From an uncultured Thermoplasmata archaeon (GTDB lineage: Archaea; Thermoplasmatota; Thermoplasmata; RBG-16-68-12): 64,000 nucleotides of DNA. Below the pieces are notes generated by a model. It did not search any database. It was given only the letters and a program-made list of their open reading frames with translations, and had not been told where the DNA came from. Of the stretch, positions 42,488 to 52,573 are shown in pieces. The stretch spans positions 1,063,195 through 1,127,194 of the forward strand of contig CAVYJM010000006.1 of the NCBI GenBank assembly GCA_963768855.1. The letters are read 5' to 3'. The number at the start of each line of letters is the position of its first letter. Position 1 is the stretch's first letter. Made by a program: the position numbers and the translations under genes.

Positions 42488-42862
42488 TTATTCCTCCCGG
42501 CGTGGGAGATTAGGGAACACGAAGCGGGCCATGTAGAAGTGCCCCTCGAGCCAGAGCGCCACGACCAGCCCGATCGCGGTGACGGACCATCCCGCGACGC
42601 CCGGGATCAGGAAGATCGCTTCCGGGATCACGAGCAGGTCGACGAAGACGCAGCCCGTCAGGAACAGCGCCCGCAGAATCTCCATGCGGATGGGGACCGA
42701 CTGGGCGCGGCTCAGGAACCGCTGCCGACGTTGTTGGGCGCGGCGCACAAGGTAGCCGCTGATCGTCCCCTGCCGCTCCACCACGCCTTGGGGACGCGCG
42801 TCCTCGCGAGGCGCCTTCCGGGCCCGGAGGGGCTGGGCGTCCGGGGACCCTTCGTCGACCAT
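42488..42862 (-). CDS. Small 2-TM membrane protein
   Basis: Basic N-terminus, two hydrophobic helices; abuts oppF, probably co-transcribed. Confidence 0.55.
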   Translation of the reverse strand: MVDEGSPDAQPLRARKAPREDARPQGVVERQGTISGYLVRRAQQRRQRFLSRAQSVPIRMEILRALFLTGCVFVDLLVIPEAIFLIPGVAGWSVTAIGLVVALWLEGHFYMARFVFPNLPRREE

Positions 42863-44275
42863 TCAGGTCGGGGCCTTCTTCGCGGGAGCTTCGGGGCCGC
42901 CAAGGCTCTCGAGTCCCAGGTCCCGCGCCGTCGCGAAGCACGCGACCTGCCGTTCGTTCCCTGCATCAAAGAGCTTAGGTTCGATCGCCCGGCACGGCTC
43001 GAACGCGAGCCAGCAGCGCGGATGGAACCGGCATCCGGAAGGCGGGCGGGTCGGGCTGGGCACCTCGCCTTCGAGGATGATCCGCTCGATCTTCACACTC
43101 GGATCGGCGGAGGGGGCCGCGGAGATGAGGGCCTTCGTGTACGGATGCAGAGGTTCTCGGAAGATGTCCTCCGTATCCCCGACCTCTACGATTTTGCCCG
43201 CATACATGACGGCAACGCGGTCCGCGATGTGGTAGACCACGCTCAGGTCATGGGTGATGAAGAGGTAGGTGAGGCCCAGCTTCGTCTGGAGGGACATCAG
43301 CAGGTTCAGGATCTGGGCTTGCACCGAGACATCCAGGGCGGAGGTGGGTTCGTCGAGGATGATCACATCGGGATTGAGTGCGAGTGCCCTCGCGACATTA
43401 ATCCGCTGGCGTTGGCCTCCGGAGAATTCATGAGGGAAGCGGTTGAGGTGCTCTTTCTTCAGGCCTACGAGTTCGAGGAGGTCGAGGACCCGATGGGTCA
43501 CCTCTTCGCCCGTCACGAAGTGTCTCCGGACGACAAACAGGTACGCGAGGAGGAAGACCGACTCTCCGATTTGGATCAGGTTGGGGACGAGGGACACGGA
43601 GAGCACAAGATTCACTCCGGCAAGGATGGCCACCCCCCACCATGCCCACCCCTCGAGTCTCCACAGGCCTAGAGCGAACCAGACTAGCATTCCGCTGAAA
43701 GCTGCCAGGTAGAGTGCGAAGAGGATGGGGCCGAAAGTGAGAGCTCCGAGATAGGCCGCAACGCCTGCGACGAGGAGAACAAGCACCGCGAGTGTCACGG
43801 AAATGGCCGCCACGAGAGCCACGAGTCCGGCGAGGATTGCAACGCTCAGGGGCCGTGTCTCCGACCTCTGGTGGACTATGAGCGGCTCGGCGATGATGTT
43901 CTTCACAGTCATCCTCGGGTTCAGGGAGGACATCGGATCCTGGAACACCATCTGCAGGTGCTTCCTCTCGTCTCGAATGACGCGAAGTTTCTCCGAGGCG
44001 AGGTCGCGGCCCATGAAGAAGACCTTGCCTGCTGAGGGATCGAGGAGGCGGAGGAGGAGTCGGGCGAGGGTGCTCTTCCCGCATCCGGACTCTCCGACGA
44101 CCGCCAGCGTCTCCCCGCGATGCAACTTCAGGGACACACCGTCCACGGCCATGACGTGTCCCTTCACGGTGCGCAGCAGGCCGCCGCGGAGCGGGAAGTG
44201 CATCTTGACGTCCTCGGCAGCCAGCAGGACATCTTGGTTGGAGAGTTTGCCGGGTGCAGCCGAATCGGCGCTCAT
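42863..44275 (-). CDS. oppF: Oligopeptide ABC ATPase OppF with inserted 113-aa membrane domain
   Basis: [51 protein letters not shown]; insert 43517-43855. Confidence 0.9.
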
Positions 44276-45879
44276 GGAATCGTCGCTCCTGCGGGAACGG
44301 GGTTATGGCAGGCGACGAGGTGCCCGGGCTCCATCTCCTGCAGGGCGGGCATCGTCGTCTTGCACACATCGAGGGCCCTCGGACAGCGCGGATGGAAGCG
44401 ACAGCCGGACGGCGGATGGAGGAGGTTCGGCACGCTCCCGCGGATGATGTAGAGATCACGCTTACGGGCTTGCGCGCTCTCTCCCTTGAACCGCGGGATC
44501 GACTGCATCAGGCCGTTCGTGTACGGGTGCATCATCCGGTGGAACACCTGCTCGGTCGTCCCGAACTCCGCGATGTGACCCGCATACATGACCCCGACCT
44601 TGTCGCAGACCTCCGCCACGATGCCCAGGTCATGCGTGATGAGCAGGATCGCCATGTTCGTCTTCGCCTGGAGCTCCTTCATGAGCTTCAGGATCTGCGC
44701 CTCGACCGTGACGTCGAGCGCGGTCGTCGGCTCGTCGGCGATTAGGAGCTCGGGATTGCACGCCATCATCATGGCGATCATGGACCGCTGTCGCATGCCT
44801 CCGGAGAGCTCGAAGGGGTACTGACCCGCAATCCGCTCCGGCTCGGCGATTCTTACTTCCCGCAGCATGTCGACCGCCCATCGGACGCCCTCATCCTGGA
44901 GGCGGGATCGCACCAGGCGACGAAGGACGCGGACCGCGCCGATGAAGTCCACGAGTTGGTCGTACGGATCTCGGAGCATGCGCTCGTACAGCTTCTTCTC
45001 GGTGGACATGATGCGGCCTCGGAACGGGGCCCAGAGATCGAAGCTGAGTCGGGCCCCGCATGAGGGACAGCAATCCCACAGCCCGGGTGCGAGCGACCAG
45101 CACGCGCTGCATACGGTCTCGTCGTCCTTCAGGCTGAGCAACCGGCCGTAGATTCCCCGCTCCTCATCGGAGAACCTGTCGGGATTCCGGTCCCCGCGGA
45201 AGGAATCTCGCGCCTGCACCGCGGTCCGGCGGTTCCCTCGGACCTTCTTCTCGCGCGCCTTCATCTGAAGTTCGAGGGCCTTGAGCACGCCACGGCAGAG
45301 TTCTGGCTTCCGATGGAGCATGAGGGTTTCCGCGATCTGGTTCCCAATCGTGAAGACCGGGTTCAGAGCGGTCATAGGCTCTTGGAAGATCATCGAGATC
45401 TTGTTTCCCCGGATCCTCCGGATGTCTTCGACGGGTTTCTGGAGGAGGTCGAACTCGGAGGTGGCGGCCTGCAGCCGGCGCTCGATGTCGAGCTTCTCTT
45501 CCTCGGACTTCGCGGACGTGAGGCGGGAACGGAGCGTTTCGATCTCTGGCTTCAGCGCCTCCATGATTGGAAGGCTCGACGCACCCGCCTGCGCGTCCTG
45601 CCGGCGCAGTCGATCTAGGGCGAGGACATCGTATTCCTTGCGCAGGGCTCGGACCTCGTCCGGTTCGTCGAGGAAGACGCGCCCTGCTTCGATCGTTCCC
45701 GGAGGACTCGGGATCAGGCGGAGGACCGACAACGCCGTCACGGACTTCCCGCACCCCGTCTCGCCCACGAGCCCCACGGTCTCGCCCGTGCAGACTTCGA
45801 GGTCGATCGATTCGAGAGCCTGGACCGTCCCTTCGTAGGTGTGGAAGTAGGTCTTCAGACCCTCGATTCGGAGCACCAC
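44272..45879 (-). CDS. oppD: Oligopeptide ABC ATPase OppD with coiled-coil and zinc-ribbon insertions
   Basis: [47 protein letters not shown]; inserts ~45451-45669 and ~44890-45309. Confidence 0.9.
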
Positions 45880-45895: not shown

Positions 45896-46855
45896 TCACC
45901 TCCGGAGCCGCGGATCGAGGATGTCCCGGAGGCCGTCCCCGAGCAGATTGAACCCGAGTACGGTCAGCACGATCGCGATGCCGGGGAAGACCGACATCCA
46001 CCACGCGTTGAACAGATAGGTGAGGCCCTCGGAGATCATCACGCCCCACTCCGCCGTCCCCGGCGGCGCGCCGAGACCCAGGAAGCCGAGCCCCGCGGCG
46101 GTCAGGATGACGTAGCCGAAGTCCATGGAGGCCTGCACGATTACGGGTGAGACGGAGTTCGGGAGCACGTGGCGCAGCATGAGCCGTGTGGGGCTCGCGC
46201 CGACGCTCTTCGCGGATTCGACGAACTGCCTTTCCTTGATGGAGAGGACCTGCCCACGCACGAGCCGAGTGTACCAGGGCCACCAGGTGATGATGAGCGC
46301 GTACATCACGTGCTCGATGCTCCTCCCGAGGACCGCGGTGATCGCAATCGCCAGGATGAGGCTCGGGATTGAGAGGAAGATGTCCGTGATCCGCATGACC
46401 ACCTCCTCGATGACGCCTCCCTTGAACCCCGCGACCAGCCCGAGGAGGGAGCCGATCAGGGAGGCGGGGATCACGACCAAGAGGCCCACTTCCAAGGAGA
46501 CGCTGGCCCCGTAGAGGACCTTGCTGTACCAGTCCGTCCCGAAGTTGTCCGTGCCGAAGGGATGGGCCAGGGACGGTCCCAGGAAGACCTGGTAGTCCCC
46601 GGGCAGGTCGTGGAACTGCCAGCGCTGCTGGAGCTGTCCGTTGATATTCACATAGGTCGGTTGCTGGACGGCCAGGTAGGGCGCGAGGAACGCAATCGCG
46701 ACGACCAGCAGGATCAGGACGAGCCCCAGCACCGCGAGCCGGTTCTTCCGGAACAGGAAGAGGGTGTACTTCAGCTCAGAGATGCGCGAGGCATGGTCTT
46801 CGAGGAAGTCCCGCCACCACCCGCCCGGGGCCTGCTTTCCCGTCTCCACCGCCAC
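45896..46855 (-). CDS. oppC: Oligopeptide ABC permease
   Basis: HPFGTD, LYGA..SL, MRITDIF, FVESAKSVGAS, RHVLPN, LGFLGLG, NLLGDGLRD.LDPR. Confidence 0.93.
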   Translation of the reverse strand: MAVETGKQAPGGWWRDFLEDHASRISELKYTLFLFRKNRLAVLGLVLILLVVAIAFLAPYLAVQQPTYVNINGQLQQRWQFHDLPGDYQVFLGPSLAHPFGTDNFGTDWYSKVLYGASVSLEVGLLVVIPASLIGSLLGLVAGFKGGVIEEVVMRITDIFLSIPSLILAIAITAVLGRSIEHVMYALIITWWPWYTRLVRGQVLSIKERQFVESAKSVGASPTRLMLRHVLPNSVSPVIVQASMDFGYVILTAAGLGFLGLGAPPGTAEWGVMISEGLTYLFNAWWMSVFPGIAIVLTVLGFNLLGDGLRDILDPRLRR

Positions 46856-46856
46856 G

Positions 46857-47891
46857 TCAGGAGCCTCCCAGCCGCACCTGAGGGTCCGCTGCGGCGTACA
46901 GTACGTCGATGACCAGGTTCGCGCTCACGTAGAAGACGGTGACCACGAAGAGGTAGCCCAGGAGGTCCGTGAAGCCCGCGTGCAAGGCGGCCTGGAGGAA
47001 GTACTTCCCTATGCCGTTCCAACTAAAGATGCTCTCCACGTAGACGTCGCCCGCAAAGGCCGAGCCGACCGTGAGGCCCGCGACAGTCAGCGTCGCGTTC
47101 GTTGCGTTGCGGAACCCGTGGCGGAAGATGACGTCCCGTTCGGGGACACCCTTCGCTCGCGCCGTGCGAATATAGTCCTGGCCAAGGACCTCGAGCATCC
47201 CTGAACGGGTCATCCGCAAAATGATGGCGAGTTGCGCGAACCCCAGAGTGAAGGCGGGCAGGAGGAGGTGAGCGACCGCGGAGATGAAGTCCGTTAGGTT
47301 CAGTGCGAGAACCGAGTCGATCGTATAGAAACCCGTAACGGTTGGCGGGGGTAGCAGGGTCGGATCGAGTCGCCCATCCAGGGGCAGTATGTTCAGTCCG
47401 ACGACCGCTAGATTCTCGTGGAAGAAGATCTTCAGCATGATGCCGAGCCAATAGATCGGGATCGCGACGCCAAGGATCGCGATGAACCTCGAAAGGTGAT
47501 CTACCCACTTGTTCCGCTTCATCGCCGAAACGATACCAAGGTAGATGCCGACAGGCAAGGCGAACAGCATTGCCGCGATGGTGAGTTCTAGGGTCGCTGG
47601 GAGGAACGTGGCGAGATTGTCCAGCACCGGGAAGTGATTCACGAAGGACGGGCCCCAGTTGCCGGTCACGAGCCGTCCCATGTAGAAGAGGTACTGACTC
47701 GGAAGAGGATCATCGAGGTGCCAATCCGCGTGGAACTGGGCGATTTGTTCGGGCCTGGCTTTCGAGCCCAGGTAGGAGAGCGCGGGGTCGATGGGAATGG
47801 CTTTCCAGAGGACGAAGGCGATCACGGTTACGCCGATGATAACCGGGATGAGCGCGATGAGTCGCCGGACGACGTATTCCCAGAGTTTCAT
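46857..47891 (-). CDS. oppB: Oligopeptide ABC permease
   Basis: PIDPA, LPATLEL, RMTRSGMLEVLGQDYIRTARAKG, ESIFSWNGIG. Confidence 0.93.
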   Translation of the reverse strand: MKLWEYVVRRLIALIPVIIGVTVIAFVLWKAIPIDPALSYLGSKARPEQIAQFHADWHLDDPLPSQYLFYMGRLVTGNWGPSFVNHFPVLDNLATFLPATLELTIAAMLFALPVGIYLGIVSAMKRNKWVDHLSRFIAILGVAIPIYWLGIMLKIFFHENLAVVGLNILPLDGRLDPTLLPPPTVTGFYTIDSVLALNLTDFISAVAHLLLPAFTLGFAQLAIILRMTRSGMLEVLGQDYIRTARAKGVPERDVIFRHGFRNATNATLTVAGLTVGSAFAGDVYVESIFSWNGIGKYFLQAALHAGFTDLLGYLFVVTVFYVSANLVIDVLYAAADPQVRLGGS

Positions 47892-48081: not shown

Positions 48082-49794
48082 CTACGTCTTCTGGTAGAAG
48101 TAGAAGTTGTACCAGGTCACCGGGTTGAAGAAGAACCCTTTCATGTAGCTCTGGTAGATGGGTACGTACTGCTGTTGGCAGAACCAGATCATGTTGGGGT
48201 TCGCCATCGCGGTCGCCCAGACCTGCGCGTAGTCCGCCGCACGGGTGGTCGTGCTCAGCTCGGATCGGGCGATCGAGGCGTAGTGGTCGATCGTCGTGTT
48301 GGCGAAGCCCGTATGCCAGTAGTCCCCACCGAAGTCGGAACTCATGACCATCGGGGTCACATAGTCGTCGGCGTCGAGGTAGTCGAGGACCCAGTGCGCC
48401 ACGAAGAAGTCGTACGCAGCGGTGCTGCGCGCCGTGTCCCAGGCGTCGGTCGACGGCTTGATCTGCAGGTCCGTGTGGACGCCGAGGCCCTGCAGCGTGG
48501 TCTGGAACCGCCTGGCCGCGTTGGCTTCCTCGAGCTGTGTCCCATCCGCGACGATGCGGAATGCGTAGCCGCCAAACCGGGTGTTCCCTACCTTTGGATA
48601 GCCAGCTTGGTCAAGGAGCTGACCGGCCTTGGTCAGGTTCTGGTAGTAGTACTGGTGCTGCGAATCGAAGTACTGCATCCCAGCCGGGATGGGTCCAGGC
48701 AGGAAGCTCGCGAAGCCCGCGTAGTCGTTCGCAATCGTCGCGTTGTAGTCGAACGCGTAGGAGAACGCCTGCCGCACGAGGCGCCCCGAGGCGTTGTCGG
48801 CCATGTACGGGTTCGTCACGTTCATCGCAACAATCTCGCTCTTGATCGTGGTGTTCGCCTTCGCCACTACCCCCGACAGGCCCGTGACTTGGGAGACGGA
48901 CGAGAGCGGGAGGTCCGCAATGTCTGCGGCGCCCGTCCGGATCGCCTCGACGCGCGAGGTGGGGTCGCTCGTGAACTTCATGACGAGCGTCGTCGGCTCG
49001 GTCCCGTGCCATCCGCGCCAGAAGTGAGTGTTCGCATGCAATGTCATCTGGCTGCCTTTGATCCAGTCGGAGGAGCTCATGCAGTAGGGGCCCGTGCCCA
49101 TCGTGTTCTGCTTGATGTAGTCGTTCGCGATGTAGTGATGCACGCCTCCGTGCGCCTCAATCCACGCGCCCTCCATGATGGAGGAGGGCTCCACCGTGGC
49201 AAGCGTCACCAGGAAGGCGGTGTACGGAGCAGTCAGGTTCATCTGAATCGTGTACGTGTCCTTCACCCAAAGGGATCCCGGGAGGTTGTTGGGGTCGAGG
49301 GTCTGGTTCAGAATCCACGCGACTCCCGATTCCGGCGAAGCCTCGAGGAGAACCTTGCGGAAAGAGGCGTACACATCGTTCGCGGTCAGGTTGTTGCCGT
49401 CACAGAACTGGACACCCTGGCGGATGTGGAATGTATAGTTGAGTCCGTCCGCGGAGATCCCGCCGTTCGCCACGGTGGGGACTTCCGAGGCCAGGTCCGG
49501 CACGAGCGTGGTCGTGTCCTTGTTGTAGCCGAGCAGTGTGTCGTAGGTATTCTGGAGGGCGACGAACGACCAGAGGTCGTACGCGTCCGACGAATCCATC
49601 GTCACGGGCTCGGACTGCATGTAATAGACGAGTGTGCTCGTGTCTCGCGTGGCTGCGGGTCGCGTGATCACGTATGCGACCGCTGCGATAATGACGATTG
49701 CGACGACCGCGATGATTGCCCACAGCCGCCACCCCATCCCACGCTTCGCCGGCGGTCCGCCGGGCGGCGGGGATGCACCTCCTCCTTCTGCCAT
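48082..49794 (-). CDS. oppA: Oligopeptide ABC substrate-binding protein with N-terminal TM anchor
   Basis: YDTLLGY, YTFHIRQGVQF.DG..LTA.DV, MGTGPY, VRQAFSYAFD. Confidence 0.92.
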   Translation of the reverse strand: MAEGGGASPPPGGPPAKRGMGWRLWAIIAVVAIVIIAAVAYVITRPAATRDTSTLVYYMQSEPVTMDSSDAYDLWSFVALQNTYDTLLGYNKDTTTLVPDLASEVPTVANGGISADGLNYTFHIRQGVQFCDGNNLTANDVYASFRKVLLEASPESGVAWILNQTLDPNNLPGSLWVKDTYTIQMNLTAPYTAFLVTLATVEPSSIMEGAWIEAHGGVHHYIANDYIKQNTMGTGPYCMSSSDWIKGSQMTLHANTHFWRGWHGTEPTTLVMKFTSDPTSRVEAIRTGAADIADLPLSSVSQVTGLSGVVAKANTTIKSEIVAMNVTNPYMADNASGRLVRQAFSYAFDYNATIANDYAGFASFLPGPIPAGMQYFDSQHQYYYQNLTKAGQLLDQAGYPKVGNTRFGGYAFRIVADGTQLEEANAARRFQTTLQGLGVHTDLQIKPSTDAWDTARSTAAYDFFVAHWVLDYLDADDYVTPMVMSSDFGGDYWHTGFANTTIDHYASIARSELSTTTRAADYAQVWATAMANPNMIWFCQQQYVPIYQSYMKGFFFNPVTWYNFYFYQKT

Positions 49795-49907: not shown

Positions 49908-51233
49908 TCACTTCCCGACGCGCTTGAACGATCCCTCGAGAACGTCGAGTCCCGCGTCGAGAACATCCTCCTCGATGTTCAGCGCGGGGATGTAGCGCAT
50001 CCCGGAATCACCGCACGTCAGGAGGATGAGGCCGTGCTCGTACGCATCCTTCTCGATCGCATCGCGGACCTTCGGGTTGGGCTTGTTCGTCCTGCGGTCC
50101 GTGACGAACTCCGTGCACTGCATCATGCCAAGGCCGCGTCGGTCTCCGATGAACTCGAAGGCGTCCTTCATTTCGTCCAGGCGCTTCGCCATGTGCGCGC
50201 CCAGCTTGGCGGACCGCGCCACGAGCCCCTCGGACTCGATCACGTCGATCACGGCCAACGACGATGCGGCCGCGACCGGGTTGCCGCCGTACGTGTTCGA
50301 GTGCTTCCCCGACATGGGGAAGTCCATCTTCGCGTCGAACACCGCGACGCCGATCGGTATGCCTCCGCCGAGGGACTTGGCCAGGACCATGATGTCGGGA
50401 ATGACCTTCGAGTGATCGATGCCCCACATCTTCCCGGTCCGTCCGAAGCCGGTCTGGACCTCATCGGCGATGAACAGGAAGTCGTTGTCCTTCGCGATCT
50501 TCCCGATCCGGTCGAGCCATCCCGGCGGCGGCACGATGTAGCCGCCCTCGCCCTGGACCGGTTCGACGAAGATGGCCGCGAGGTCCTCGGGCGGCGCGAT
50601 CGTCTTCAGGTAGAGGTCCTCGATGATGTTCGCGCAGTACAGGTCGCACGAGGGGTAGGTGAGCTTGTACGGGCAGCGGTAACAATAGGCGAACGGCACG
50701 TGGACGACGCCAGGCATGCTCGGGAAGAACCCGGACTTCTGCTTCGCCTTGCTCGCGGTCAGGGAGAGCGCGCCCTGCGACCTCCCATGGAACGCGCCGA
50801 GGAACGCGAGGAACATCTGCCGCTTCTTGTAGTACTTCGCGATCTTGATCGCGGCCTCGTTGCCCTCCCCACCCGAGTTGGCGAAGAAGGTCTTCTTCGC
50901 ATGCTTGCCCGGGGTGATCTCAGCGAGCTTCTTCGCGAGCTGCGTCTGCACATCGTAGTAGTAGTCCGTGCCGGCGAAGTGCATGAATTCGCCGGCCTGC
51001 TTGCGGACCGCCTCGACCACCTTCGGATGGGAGAGGCCGACGTTGAGCACGGAGATGCCCGACGCGAAGTCGATGAGCAGGTTCCCATCGACGTCCTCGA
51101 CGACGGCGCCCGAGCCTCGTTTGATGACGATCGGGGCGGACTTCGTGGTCGTGGCCATGTACTTCTTGTCGCGCTCGATCACCTCTCGCGCCTTCGGGCC
51201 CGGAGGGGTGACTTTGATGTCGGGGACTTTCAC
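49908..51233 (-). CDS. Class III PLP aminotransferase (4-aminobutyrate/acetylornithine type)
   Basis: NSGGEGNEAAIK, FHGRS, EPVQGEGG, DEVQTGFGRTG, AKSLGGG, NTYGGN. Confidence 0.9.
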   Translation of the reverse strand: MKVPDIKVTPPGPKAREVIERDKKYMATTTKSAPIVIKRGSGAVVEDVDGNLLIDFASGISVLNVGLSHPKVVEAVRKQAGEFMHFAGTDYYYDVQTQLAKKLAEITPGKHAKKTFFANSGGEGNEAAIKIAKYYKKRQMFLAFLGAFHGRSQGALSLTASKAKQKSGFFPSMPGVVHVPFAYCYRCPYKLTYPSCDLYCANIIEDLYLKTIAPPEDLAAIFVEPVQGEGGYIVPPPGWLDRIGKIAKDNDFLFIADEVQTGFGRTGKMWGIDHSKVIPDIMVLAKSLGGGIPIGVAVFDAKMDFPMSGKHSNTYGGNPVAAASSLAVIDVIESEGLVARSAKLGAHMAKRLDEMKDAFEFIGDRRGLGMMQCTEFVTDRRTNKPNPKVRDAIEKDAYEHGLILLTCGDSGMRYIPALNIEEDVLDAGLDVLEGSFKRVGK

Positions 51234-51322: not shown

Positions 51323-51469
51323 CTACTTCGCCGCTCCGATCCGCATGATCGTCGTGCCGCAGACCGGGCACTTTCCCTTCATGGCCGGCTTGCCGTTCTT
51401 GAGCGTGACCGCCGCAGCATCCTTCATTTCGCGCTTGGCCTTGCACTTCACGCAGTAGGCTTGCACCAT
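51323..51469 (-). CDS. 48-aa DUF5679-like zinc-ribbon protein
   Basis: AYCVKCK.KREM...KNGKPAMKGKCPVCGT. Confidence 0.8.
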   Translation of the reverse strand: MVQAYCVKCKAKREMKDAAAVTLKNGKPAMKGKCPVCGTTIMRIGAAK

Positions 51470-51651
51470 GAGACTCACCGCGCGGCTGGAAAGTCGCAGG
51501 GTGCATAAAGATATGGGGAAGAAAGCCAAACCCTGAAACCGAGGGGTGATGACCGAAACCGGCGGATGGAGGGAATCGACCTTCCGTGCACAACAGCGAT
51601 TCGTCTCGCAACGATTATATAGGCTCCATCGAGCTCTCCCGTCCGGAGCCC

Positions 51652-52029
51652 ATGACCGCGCCCGGCTATGTCCCGAGTCCGAGTCGTCCCATCGGCGTCG
51701 CGATCTTGGCCATCCTCGTCATCCTGGTCGGCGCCTTGTTCCTCCTCGGCGCGCTCGGACTCCTCCTTCTAGCGGGGTTCGCCGCAATCCGGGGGCTGCC
51801 GACGTTCTTCGGGCTCACGGGCGCGTTCCTCGGCGTGGTCCTCCTTATCTTCGCGTTCATCTTCATCGGCGTGGGCCTGGGCCTCTGGCGTTTGCGGAGC
51901 TGGGCCTGGTGGCTCGCCATCATCGTCCTCGTGCTCGACATCATCGGGAGCCTCGCGGACCCGGTCGGACTCGTCATCCCTCTCATCCTGCTGATCTACC
52001 TCGTCCTCGTCCGTCAGCACTTCCGTTAG
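51652..52029 (+). CDS. Small 4-TM protein homologous to the OppF insert
   Basis: RPIGVAILA...GLWRLRSWAWW...IYLVLVRQHF; ATTATATA box upstream. Confidence 0.8.
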   Translation: MTAPGYVPSPSRPIGVAILAILVILVGALFLLGALGLLLLAGFAAIRGLPTFFGLTGAFLGVVLLIFAFIFIGVGLGLWRLRSWAWWLAIIVLVLDIIGSLADPVGLVIPLILLIYLVLVRQHFR

Positions 52030-52165
52030 CCGTCGACCAGATTTGCCACTGTCACGACAGAGTCTGAACTCGGCAGCGCGAGCGTGCCCTTTTCCTCCTA
52101 TCTGGCTTTTATAGGAACTTATATATAATGGCCGGAAGATTCGCGCCTAAGATAGGAGGCGTGCC

Positions 52166-52573
52166 TTGGCAGAGAAACCAACAGCAGCGTTCGTGCTATC
52201 GTTGATCGGCGGCATTTTCATCCTTTTGGGCGGAGCTCTGATCGCAGCCGTGTTCGCCACGCTCGGCAGCATGTTCGGCGCACTCGGATTCGGAGACTTT
52301 GGCATGGGCATGACCATGGTGGGCGTGCTGGGCCTCGTGTTTGGCCTGATCATCATCGTCGCGGGCGTCATGATGTACATGAAACCGCAGCAGCACGTGA
52401 TGTGGGGCGTGATCGTCCTCCTGCTGGCGATTGTCAGCATCCCCTTCAGCCTGGCGGGCTTCCTGATCGGCTTCATCCTGGCCCTCATCGGCGGGATTCT
52501 CGGCCTCGTGTTCAAGCCGAGCATGCCCATGGCGGCTCCCTACGCGCCTCCGATGGCGCCGCCCCCGCAGTGA
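52166..52573 (+). CDS. 4-TM protein (DUF6114-like)
   Basis: [10 protein letters not shown]...[13 protein letters not shown]; CTTATATATA box upstream; TTG start. Confidence 0.75.

Follow-up and report, generated by a model that had tools for sequence, protein, structure and literature searches.

A stand-alone four-helix membrane protein of a Thermoplasmata archaeon is homologous to a membrane domain nested in the OppF ATPase of a nearby opp operon

Introduction

Why does the ATPase of a peptide importer carry, inside its catalytic domain, a stretch that resembles a small membrane protein encoded by a separate gene nearby, and what does this likeness tell about the small protein? The question is raised by a window of 64,000 nucleotides, which is the whole stretch of DNA analyzed here and lies on contig C6 of the source assembly (G000; 2.87 Mb, about 66% G+C). 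The first-pass annotation of this DNA had explained the pair as a domain capture from a local family of small membrane proteins, and had proposed that the free protein may be an accessory subunit of peptide ABC transporters. In classical Rosetta-stone fusions, two proteins are separate in most genomes and fused in a few, and a functional link between them is inferred from this pattern. We describe here the free gene, the fused OppF and the distribution of both, and weigh what the fusion says about the function of the free protein.

Results

The free gene and its protein

A complete opp operon on the minus strand of the window lies about 2 kb from the free gene, and the features of the region are listed in Table 1. 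The DNA is archaeal by its content: tiaS is close by, Rpb6 occurs in relatives, and related proteins are recorded under Thermoplasmata or Euryarchaeota.

Table 1. Features of the opp operon, the free gene and their neighborhood in the window
Feature	Coordinates	Strand	Description and evidence
P0121, 124-aa ORF	42488..42862	-	two hydrophobic stretches; directly after oppF
oppF (P0002)	42863..44275	-	PepT-family ABC ATPase, 470 aa, nested membrane domain; Pfam
in-frame insert in oppF	43514..43867	-	OppF residues ~137-254; homologous to free gene
oppD	44272..45879	-	partner ATPase, 535 aa; zinc-ribbon insert at equivalent site, coiled-coil insert after Walker A
oppC permease	45896..46855	-	Pfam OppC_N + BPD_transp_1
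oppB permease	46857..47891	-	Pfam BPD_transp_1_N + BPD_transp_1
oppA substrate-binding protein	48082..49794	-	N-terminal membrane anchor; Pfam SBP_bac_5 + sequence
class-III aminotransferase gene	49908..51233	-	between opp operon and free gene; Aminotran_3 E 5e-109
48-aa zinc-ribbon gene	51323..51469	-	divergent neighbor of free gene
TTATATA, TATA-box-like	51615..51621	+	~30 nt upstream of ATG 51652; read from sequence
free gene (P0001)	51652..52029	+	125-aa four-helix membrane protein, stand-alone relative of OppF insert
DUF6114 small membrane protein gene	52166..52573	+	adjoins free gene; Pfam DUF6114 E 1e-10

The translation of the free gene, P0001, is free of stops and very hydrophobic. 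Orthologues of P0001 were found in 35 of the 38 genomes of the genus, and a comparison of three species gave dN/dS values of 0.16-0.29. Using AF2 on the family alignment, we obtained a model of P0001 with a pLDDT of 88.5 and helices at residues 14-46, 51-79, 83-99, and 104-119. The genus-wide orthologues, the dN/dS values, the confident fold, and the TATA-like box together indicate that this is a real gene. Public gene calls (51586-52029, plus strand, cluster P0007) give a longer protein of 147 aa from GTG 51586, and the TTATATA element is located inside this longer call. Homologues of P0001 are 123-131 aa long and start at the Met equivalent to ATG 51652; together with the position of the TATA-like box, this argues against GTG 51586 and makes ATG 51652 the likely start. 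The spacing of the element, for which a promoter role is predicted, suggests a leaderless transcript.

A Foldseek search of the PDB with the P0001 model returned nothing at E <= 0.001 (the best hit was tetraspanin-like, E 2.6), and a quick ESM-Atlas shape search with P0001 gave no match. Around the free gene, the 127-aa ORF at 52147-52530 (minus strand) is an antisense shadow of the real gene, which encodes the DUF6114 protein on the plus strand. Three near-identical copies of a second paralogue of the family, of about 150 aa, were also seen in G000 (C19:3694-4077, C20:3840-4241, and C24:9513-9914; L003-L005). The contigs that hold them are small (8-25 kb) and the contamination score of the assembly is 7.7%; the copies may stem from contamination, from variation among strains, or from an element that is repeated in the genome.

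The free protein and the OppF insert are homologous

OppF of the window contains about 118 extra residues between a helix ending in ...AEPLIVHQ and a helix starting with [16 protein letters not shown]. Through composition-adjusted BLASTP, residues 6-124 of P0001 were aligned end to end with OppF residues 135-253, with 40% identity and 56% positives over 126 columns (E 2e-10); the earlier estimate of roughly a third identical was slightly low. All the motifs quoted in the first-pass annotation were found, and the separation of about 7.8 kb from the start of the free gene to the insert was as described. A second BLAST match, which is short (GYVPSPSRP with [10 protein letters not shown], 0.01), is not conserved among the orthologues and was treated as chance.

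P0001 and the insert are both rich in Leu, Ala, Val, and Gly, so that the likeness could in principle be purely compositional, unrelated hydrophobic segments looking alike by chance; the neighboring DUF6114 protein does give tblastn matches of 29-37% when composition is not corrected. The BLASTP significance was nevertheless obtained with composition-adjusted scoring. The Smith-Waterman score of P0001 against the insert was 179, compared with a mean of 50.6 (SD 8.7, maximum 123) in 2000 global shuffles of P0001, giving z = 14.8. Shuffling within blocks of 12 residues, which preserves the layout of helices and loops, raised the mean to 80.5 (SD 12.5), yet the maximum of 2000 such local shuffles was only 132 and the alignment remained significant (z = 7.9). 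From end to end the two sequences are collinear, and rare motifs (WAWW, RP, and VR.HF) occur in both. The family profile A2 gave full-length matches to the free protein and to the insert, with E 3.9e-45 for the free gene and E 5.0e-30 for the insert, although both are rows of A2, so that these matches arise partly by construction. These results indicate that the compositional reading is effectively refuted, and we give it practically no weight.

The flanks of the insert in OppF were aligned with the solved OppF/DppF chains (residues 133/257 of P0002 against 466/472 of Rv1281c), and the solved chains were found to bridge this site with a turn of about 5 residues. Since the flanks leave room only for this turn, and the alignment spans nearly the whole of P0001, the ends of the insert are the ends of the free protein, in agreement with the boundaries that had been described.

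The insert is nested in the helical subdomain of an intact OppF

In Pfam searches of OppF, PF00005 (ABC_tran, E 9e-34) was split in two by the insert, and PF08352 (oligo_HPY, E 2.5e-21) was matched as well; the best solved relatives are Rv1281c, DppF, and OppF. Walker A, Q-loop, signature, Walker B, and H-loop are all intact, as in a PepT-family ATPase, and these catalytic motifs together with C415, C421, C428, and C446 are invariant in four fused OppF sequences. Compared with the canonical proteins (DppBCDF 8z1v, OppBCDF 8z21, and Rv1281c 8j5q), the OppF of the window shares all the ABC motifs and the oligo_HPY domain, the four Cys that bind the [4Fe-4S] cluster in DppF, and the permease-contact residues, but has a 118-residue four-helix membrane domain in place of the short turn. 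None of the solved chains matched in the search has an insert at that site, and a literature search for membrane insertions in ABC NBDs returned nothing relevant.

The AF2 model of OppF had a mean pLDDT of 76, with 68-79 in the insert, and was based on 4 informative sequences; a joint MAFFT alignment of OppF paralogues and free proteins misplaced the free proteins and was discarded for the folding. In this model, the NBD helix 124-136 runs straight into the first insert helix (137-175), which is followed by helices 181-204, 209-228, and 233-252, and the NBD resumes three residues after the fourth. ABC half-transporters and MacB-type proteins also have a TMD and an NBD in one polypeptide; there, translocation is the task of the membrane domain itself, which is fused end to end, at a terminus. 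Unlike them, OppF nests an unrelated small membrane protein within the ATPase fold, and OppB and OppC remain separate.

From the report of the E. coli dipeptide transporter, N113 and E124 of DppF make polar contacts with DppC (PMC12136057). When the two proteins are aligned without gaps, with the numbering shifted by 6, these residues correspond to N119 and E130 of P0002, and the insert begins at about residue 137, two helical turns past E130. By homology, the turn that holds the insert would lie seven residues after a residue contacting the coupling helix of the permease. OppC is the expected docking partner of OppF, as DppC is of DppF (PMC12136057), and the alignment and the published contact list thus suggest a position of the bundle beside OppC. 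The helical subdomain rotates by about 20 degrees in the transport cycle (PMC12136057), so that an attached bundle would have to follow or restrain this rotation.

In this lineage, the turn after the first helix of the helical subdomain is a hot spot for insertions. Normally 58 residues separate the Q-loop from the signature, as they do in most Opp ATPase paralogues of the genus (L035-L064); the number is 103-108 or 160-194 in proteins that carry CxxC zinc ribbons or low-complexity segments there, for example L037, L038, and L057, and OppD of the window has an insert there too. In addition, many OppF-like paralogues (L039-L050, L053, L059, and L062-L064) have insertions of about 100-250 aa in the Cys-rich C-terminal region, which lie in the oligo_HPY/4Fe-4S part, after CxxxxC and before the last VAC motif.

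The capture went from the free gene to OppF

To evaluate how common the fused form is, we searched a collection of 5.8 billion proteins, and found only three clusters with the insert in OppF, for which the identity within the insert was 98%, 97%, and 74%; of 61 related genomes, G023 alone added another fused OppF. In the genomes and proteins searched, the fused form was therefore seen only in G000, G023, and GCA_030157145 and in two near-identical metagenome clusters, which amounts to three species-level lineages in one sub-clade of the genus. This count is a lower bound, because several assemblies of the genus, among them G013, G009, G036, and G002, break exactly at this locus. An apparent absence from G013 was rejected as an assembly gap: its contig C182 ends with the 3' end of the orthologous oppF, so that G013 has the opp operon and the insert region is unassembled. 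In G013, G025, G002, G021, G005, and G029 (L065-L072), the contig that holds the free gene ends no more than about 2.7 kb away, often at or in the aminotransferase gene, which suggests that the locus is hard to assemble or strain-variable, for example by the swapped ABC operon slot described below.

The free family is far wider. A word-indexed search returned 111 relatives of 78-168 aa, and a profile search of 1.84 billion representatives gave 3621 clusters at E <= 0.001, the best 150 of which are all 94-257 aa long. A family member was found in 72 of the 201 sampled genomes of the class, a count that takes in the unpublished genomes G142 and G232; all other claims are independent of both. With so much wider a spread of the free family than of the fusion, the direction of the capture is from the free gene to the OppF insert. 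The capture probably happened once.

The gene order supports the same direction. The block of the DUF6114 gene, the free gene, the 48-aa zinc-ribbon gene, and the class-III aminotransferase gene is conserved across the genus and in a sister genus; the order of the DUF6114 gene and the free gene is swapped in some species (e.g., G025 and GCA_030157145), and the syntenic counterpart of the zinc-ribbon gene is annotated as DUF5679 (L077 and L085). In six species of the genus and related genomes, the slot between the aminotransferase gene and tiaS is occupied by a different, shorter ABC system, which in L085 consists of SBP_bac_3, two BPD_transp_1, and a 241-aa ABC_tran protein (amino-acid type). 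In G000, G023, and GCA_030157145, the opp operon occupies this slot. The opp operon thus replaced an amino-acid ABC operon, and the adjacency of the free gene and the aminotransferase gene is older than the arrival of opp. The distance of only 7.8 kb thus came about when operons were exchanged next to a gene that was older and stayed in place; such closeness may have made the capture easier and does not show a functional link.

The opposite course, in which the free gene would be an excision or fission product of the OppF insert, has in its favor only the proximity of the two genes. It is contradicted by the distribution: the free family is not only wider than the fusion but far older, in the genomes searched no fusion occurs outside one sub-clade of a single genus, and the syntenic block of the free gene is present in relatives without an opp operon there. 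We consider this course next to impossible.

Whether the donor was the neighboring gene itself was addressed by phylogeny. In the trees, the inserts have long branches, of about 2.8 changes per column, and the three are united weakly, with a support of 54; measured along the branches, the rows closest to them are free proteins from the genus itself. Constraining the inserts to group with the seven free proteins orthologous to P0001 in the G000 sub-clade cost 1.9 log-likelihood units (AU p = 0.43), so that this grouping was not rejected. Of the local domain capture proposed earlier, the capture from a small membrane-protein family therefore stands, and a local donor, from the lineage of the neighboring gene, is compatible with the trees.

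Selection on the insert is uneven among the fused lineages

All the fused proteins keep R141-P142, G203, W205, W210-A211-W212-W213, V249-R250, and F253, and a free copy is kept beside the fusion in each of G000, G023, and GCA_030157145. Between G000 and GCA_030157145, dN/dS was 0.12 in the insert and 0.09 in the flanks, and the inserts were 74% identical compared with 62% for the free copies. Toward G023, dN/dS was about 0.6 in the insert and 0.12 in the flanks; the G023 insert is 32-36% identical to that of G000 over ATPase flanks of about 84%, and has charged residues within helices 1 and 2. From these two dN/dS values, the insert is truly constrained in one lineage, and in another its constraint is weak or has been interrupted. 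The G023 insert may go back to a second capture or to gene conversion.

These data bear on the possibility that the insert is a neutral passenger, an accident tolerated at a permissive loop that adds nothing to transport, its hydrophobicity being kept only to avoid the harm of a half-degraded membrane domain; the homology would then be functionally uninformative. Such a reading agrees with the many unrelated inserts that paralogues accept at this site, with the restriction of the fusion to three lineages, and with the fast divergence and the charges of the G023 insert. However, in the G000/GCA_030157145 pair the constraint on the insert equals that on the ATPase core, and the inserts are better conserved than the free copies found in these genomes; all the landmark residues persist even in G023. 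We regard a neutral passenger as unlikely, and as the most serious of the alternatives to an anchor module kept by selection.

The free family is not generally associated with peptide transporters

To determine whether the fusion points to a dedicated role of the free protein in peptide transport, we analyzed 40 loci from 14 taxonomic families, extending up to 9 kb on each side of family members; a family member was present in 40 of 40. OppA, OppB, OppC, or oligo_HPY was found within 9 kb in none of the 40 loci. Generic ABC ATPases occurred in 9 of the 40, which by our own rough estimate is about the chance level for so abundant a group of paralogues. When the neighboring ORFs within 4.5 kb were clustered, no family besides the query family recurred across taxonomic families, and a generic ABC ATPase cluster appeared in only 6 of the 40 loci. 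Four distant members on long contigs have unrelated gene contexts, except for one relative that keeps the synteny described above. In a check of five chosen complete genomes for PF08352, for which the control genomes gave matches in 11 of 14, three had a family member and no PF08352 match: G169 (99% complete, 2 contigs), G158 (98%), and G195 (99%, 1 contig). The pattern of separate and fused forms is the same as in classical Rosetta-stone cases; the co-occurrence and the shared neighborhood that usually accompany it were tested here and are absent. Given that there is no association with opp loci, the proposal of an accessory subunit, for which such an absence had been named in advance as the refuting outcome, is unsupported, and the free protein is not supported as a dedicated subunit of peptide transporters.

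Spelled out, the Rosetta-stone reading would make the free protein an accessory membrane subunit, able to dissociate, whose docking site is the helical subdomain of the ATPases of Opp-type or other ABC importers, a contact that the fusion merely hard-wires. The fusion does exist and is under purifying selection in one lineage, the conserved residues of the family are on the cytoplasmic side near the NBD junction, and in this genus the free gene lies a few kilobases from an ABC importer operon of the opp or amino-acid type. Against this, the survey above gave no Opp genes and no recurrent neighbor, three genomes have the family without any PF08352 domain, distant members stand in unrelated contexts, the fused genomes retain the free gene, and in the genus the free gene is two genes away from the operon and divergently read. 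We therefore judge a docking subunit to be improbable.

As an extra membrane subunit of Opp, P0121 is a better candidate than the free gene. P0121 has no Pfam match; it is kept after the orthologous oppF in G023, G013, and GCA_030157145 (60-62% identity), and weaker relatives (25-30%) follow other oppF paralogues on contigs C21 and C22 of G000 and C61 of G023.

The free family borders DUF7144 and DUF2127 and shares a conserved face

The family is a large and mostly archaeal group of stand-alone small membrane proteins on the border of DUF7144/DUF2127. Both of these uncharacterized Pfam families of small membrane proteins resemble it in length (about 115-140 aa), in their four hydrophobic helices, and in a Trp-rich turn after helix 2, but P0001 falls below both cut-offs. 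Against DUF7144 (PF23636, gathering threshold 27.0 bits), hmmscan gave no match of P0001 at E <= 0.01 and no match of the OppF insert; the orthologue P0124 scored 15.7 bits, below the threshold, and 5 of 22 family members matched at E <= 0.01, of which only P0056 (27.9) and P0075 (27.3) passed. P0001 matched DUF2127 (PF09900) over residues 58-97 only, with 17.1 bits (gathering threshold 24.3) and E 0.0067; matches at E <= 0.01 were also 5 of 22 among the relatives. Clusters of DUF7144 and DUF2127 were among the neighbors in an ESM-Atlas feature search, and a literature search found DUF7144 in no paper.

The landmarks of the family are RP before helix 1, G-L-W...W-A-W at the turn between helices 2 and 3, and V-R-x-x-F at the C-terminus; RP, G-W, WAWW, and VR..F are invariant in three divergent inserts and kept in the free family. 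The invariant or near-invariant columns of P0001 are P13, V16-L19, A20, L22, G77-W79, W84-A85, L114, Y116, L117, V120-R121, and F124. Because the module is nested within OppF, both termini must be cytoplasmic in the family. Together with the four-helix model, this topology would place all the conserved positions in the cytoplasmic-leaflet half of the bundle.

Relatives of P0001 that are longer through fusion did not turn up in our search, which is weak evidence. Frames of 430-634 aa around family members elsewhere were stop-free GC-rich upstream sequence and were rejected as fusions, with L111 as a possible exception: at L111:8407-9324 (plus strand), in G117, from another family of the class with a lower G+C, a member is C-terminal in a 306-aa frame that also has a CPNC...CPRC zinc ribbon and an earlier hydrophobic segment, and the N-terminal extension may be genuine.

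Discussion

Taken together, the analysis favors a real free gene, a capture in a single direction into OppF, a module that acts there as an anchor, and no dedicated role of the free protein in Opp, a reading to which we assign a probability of about 0.7. The homology, the direction of the capture, the distribution of both forms, the missing link to opp loci, and purifying selection are shown by the data, whereas the anchoring and the role of the cytoplasmic face are proposals. The free protein is most likely an autonomous four-helix membrane module with both termini cytoplasmic. In one sub-clade, the short turn of the OppF helical subdomain received an in-frame copy of a member of the family, after an opp operon had replaced the amino-acid ABC operon two genes from the free gene. 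The result is an ABC ATPase with a built-in membrane bundle, in which the module may serve as a permanent membrane anchor beside OppC, and the free protein may use the same cytoplasmic face for interaction with a partner or with lipid.

A broader possibility is that the free proteins are general detachable membrane tethers, which dock on ABC ATPases or other peripheral enzymes through the cytoplasmic-leaflet face. We hold this to be a long shot. If it were true, the OppF fusion would be the first view of that interface, and would give a function to thousands of uncharacterized archaeal DUF7144-like membrane proteins.

The pair records a rare event, the placement of a complete integral membrane protein within the catalytic domain of an ABC ATPase of a normally soluble kind, where the nested module, next to the permease-contacting surface, was then retained under purifying selection. 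The locus is also a clean case of a swap in an ABC operon slot, between an amino-acid system and a peptide system, beside an aminotransferase gene. Showing that the transfer of an accessory-subunit role to the free protein is unsupported keeps a wrong annotation from spreading through the family. What the fusion does give the free family is one firm fact, that its termini are cytoplasmic, and one lead, the conserved positions in the cytoplasmic leaflet.
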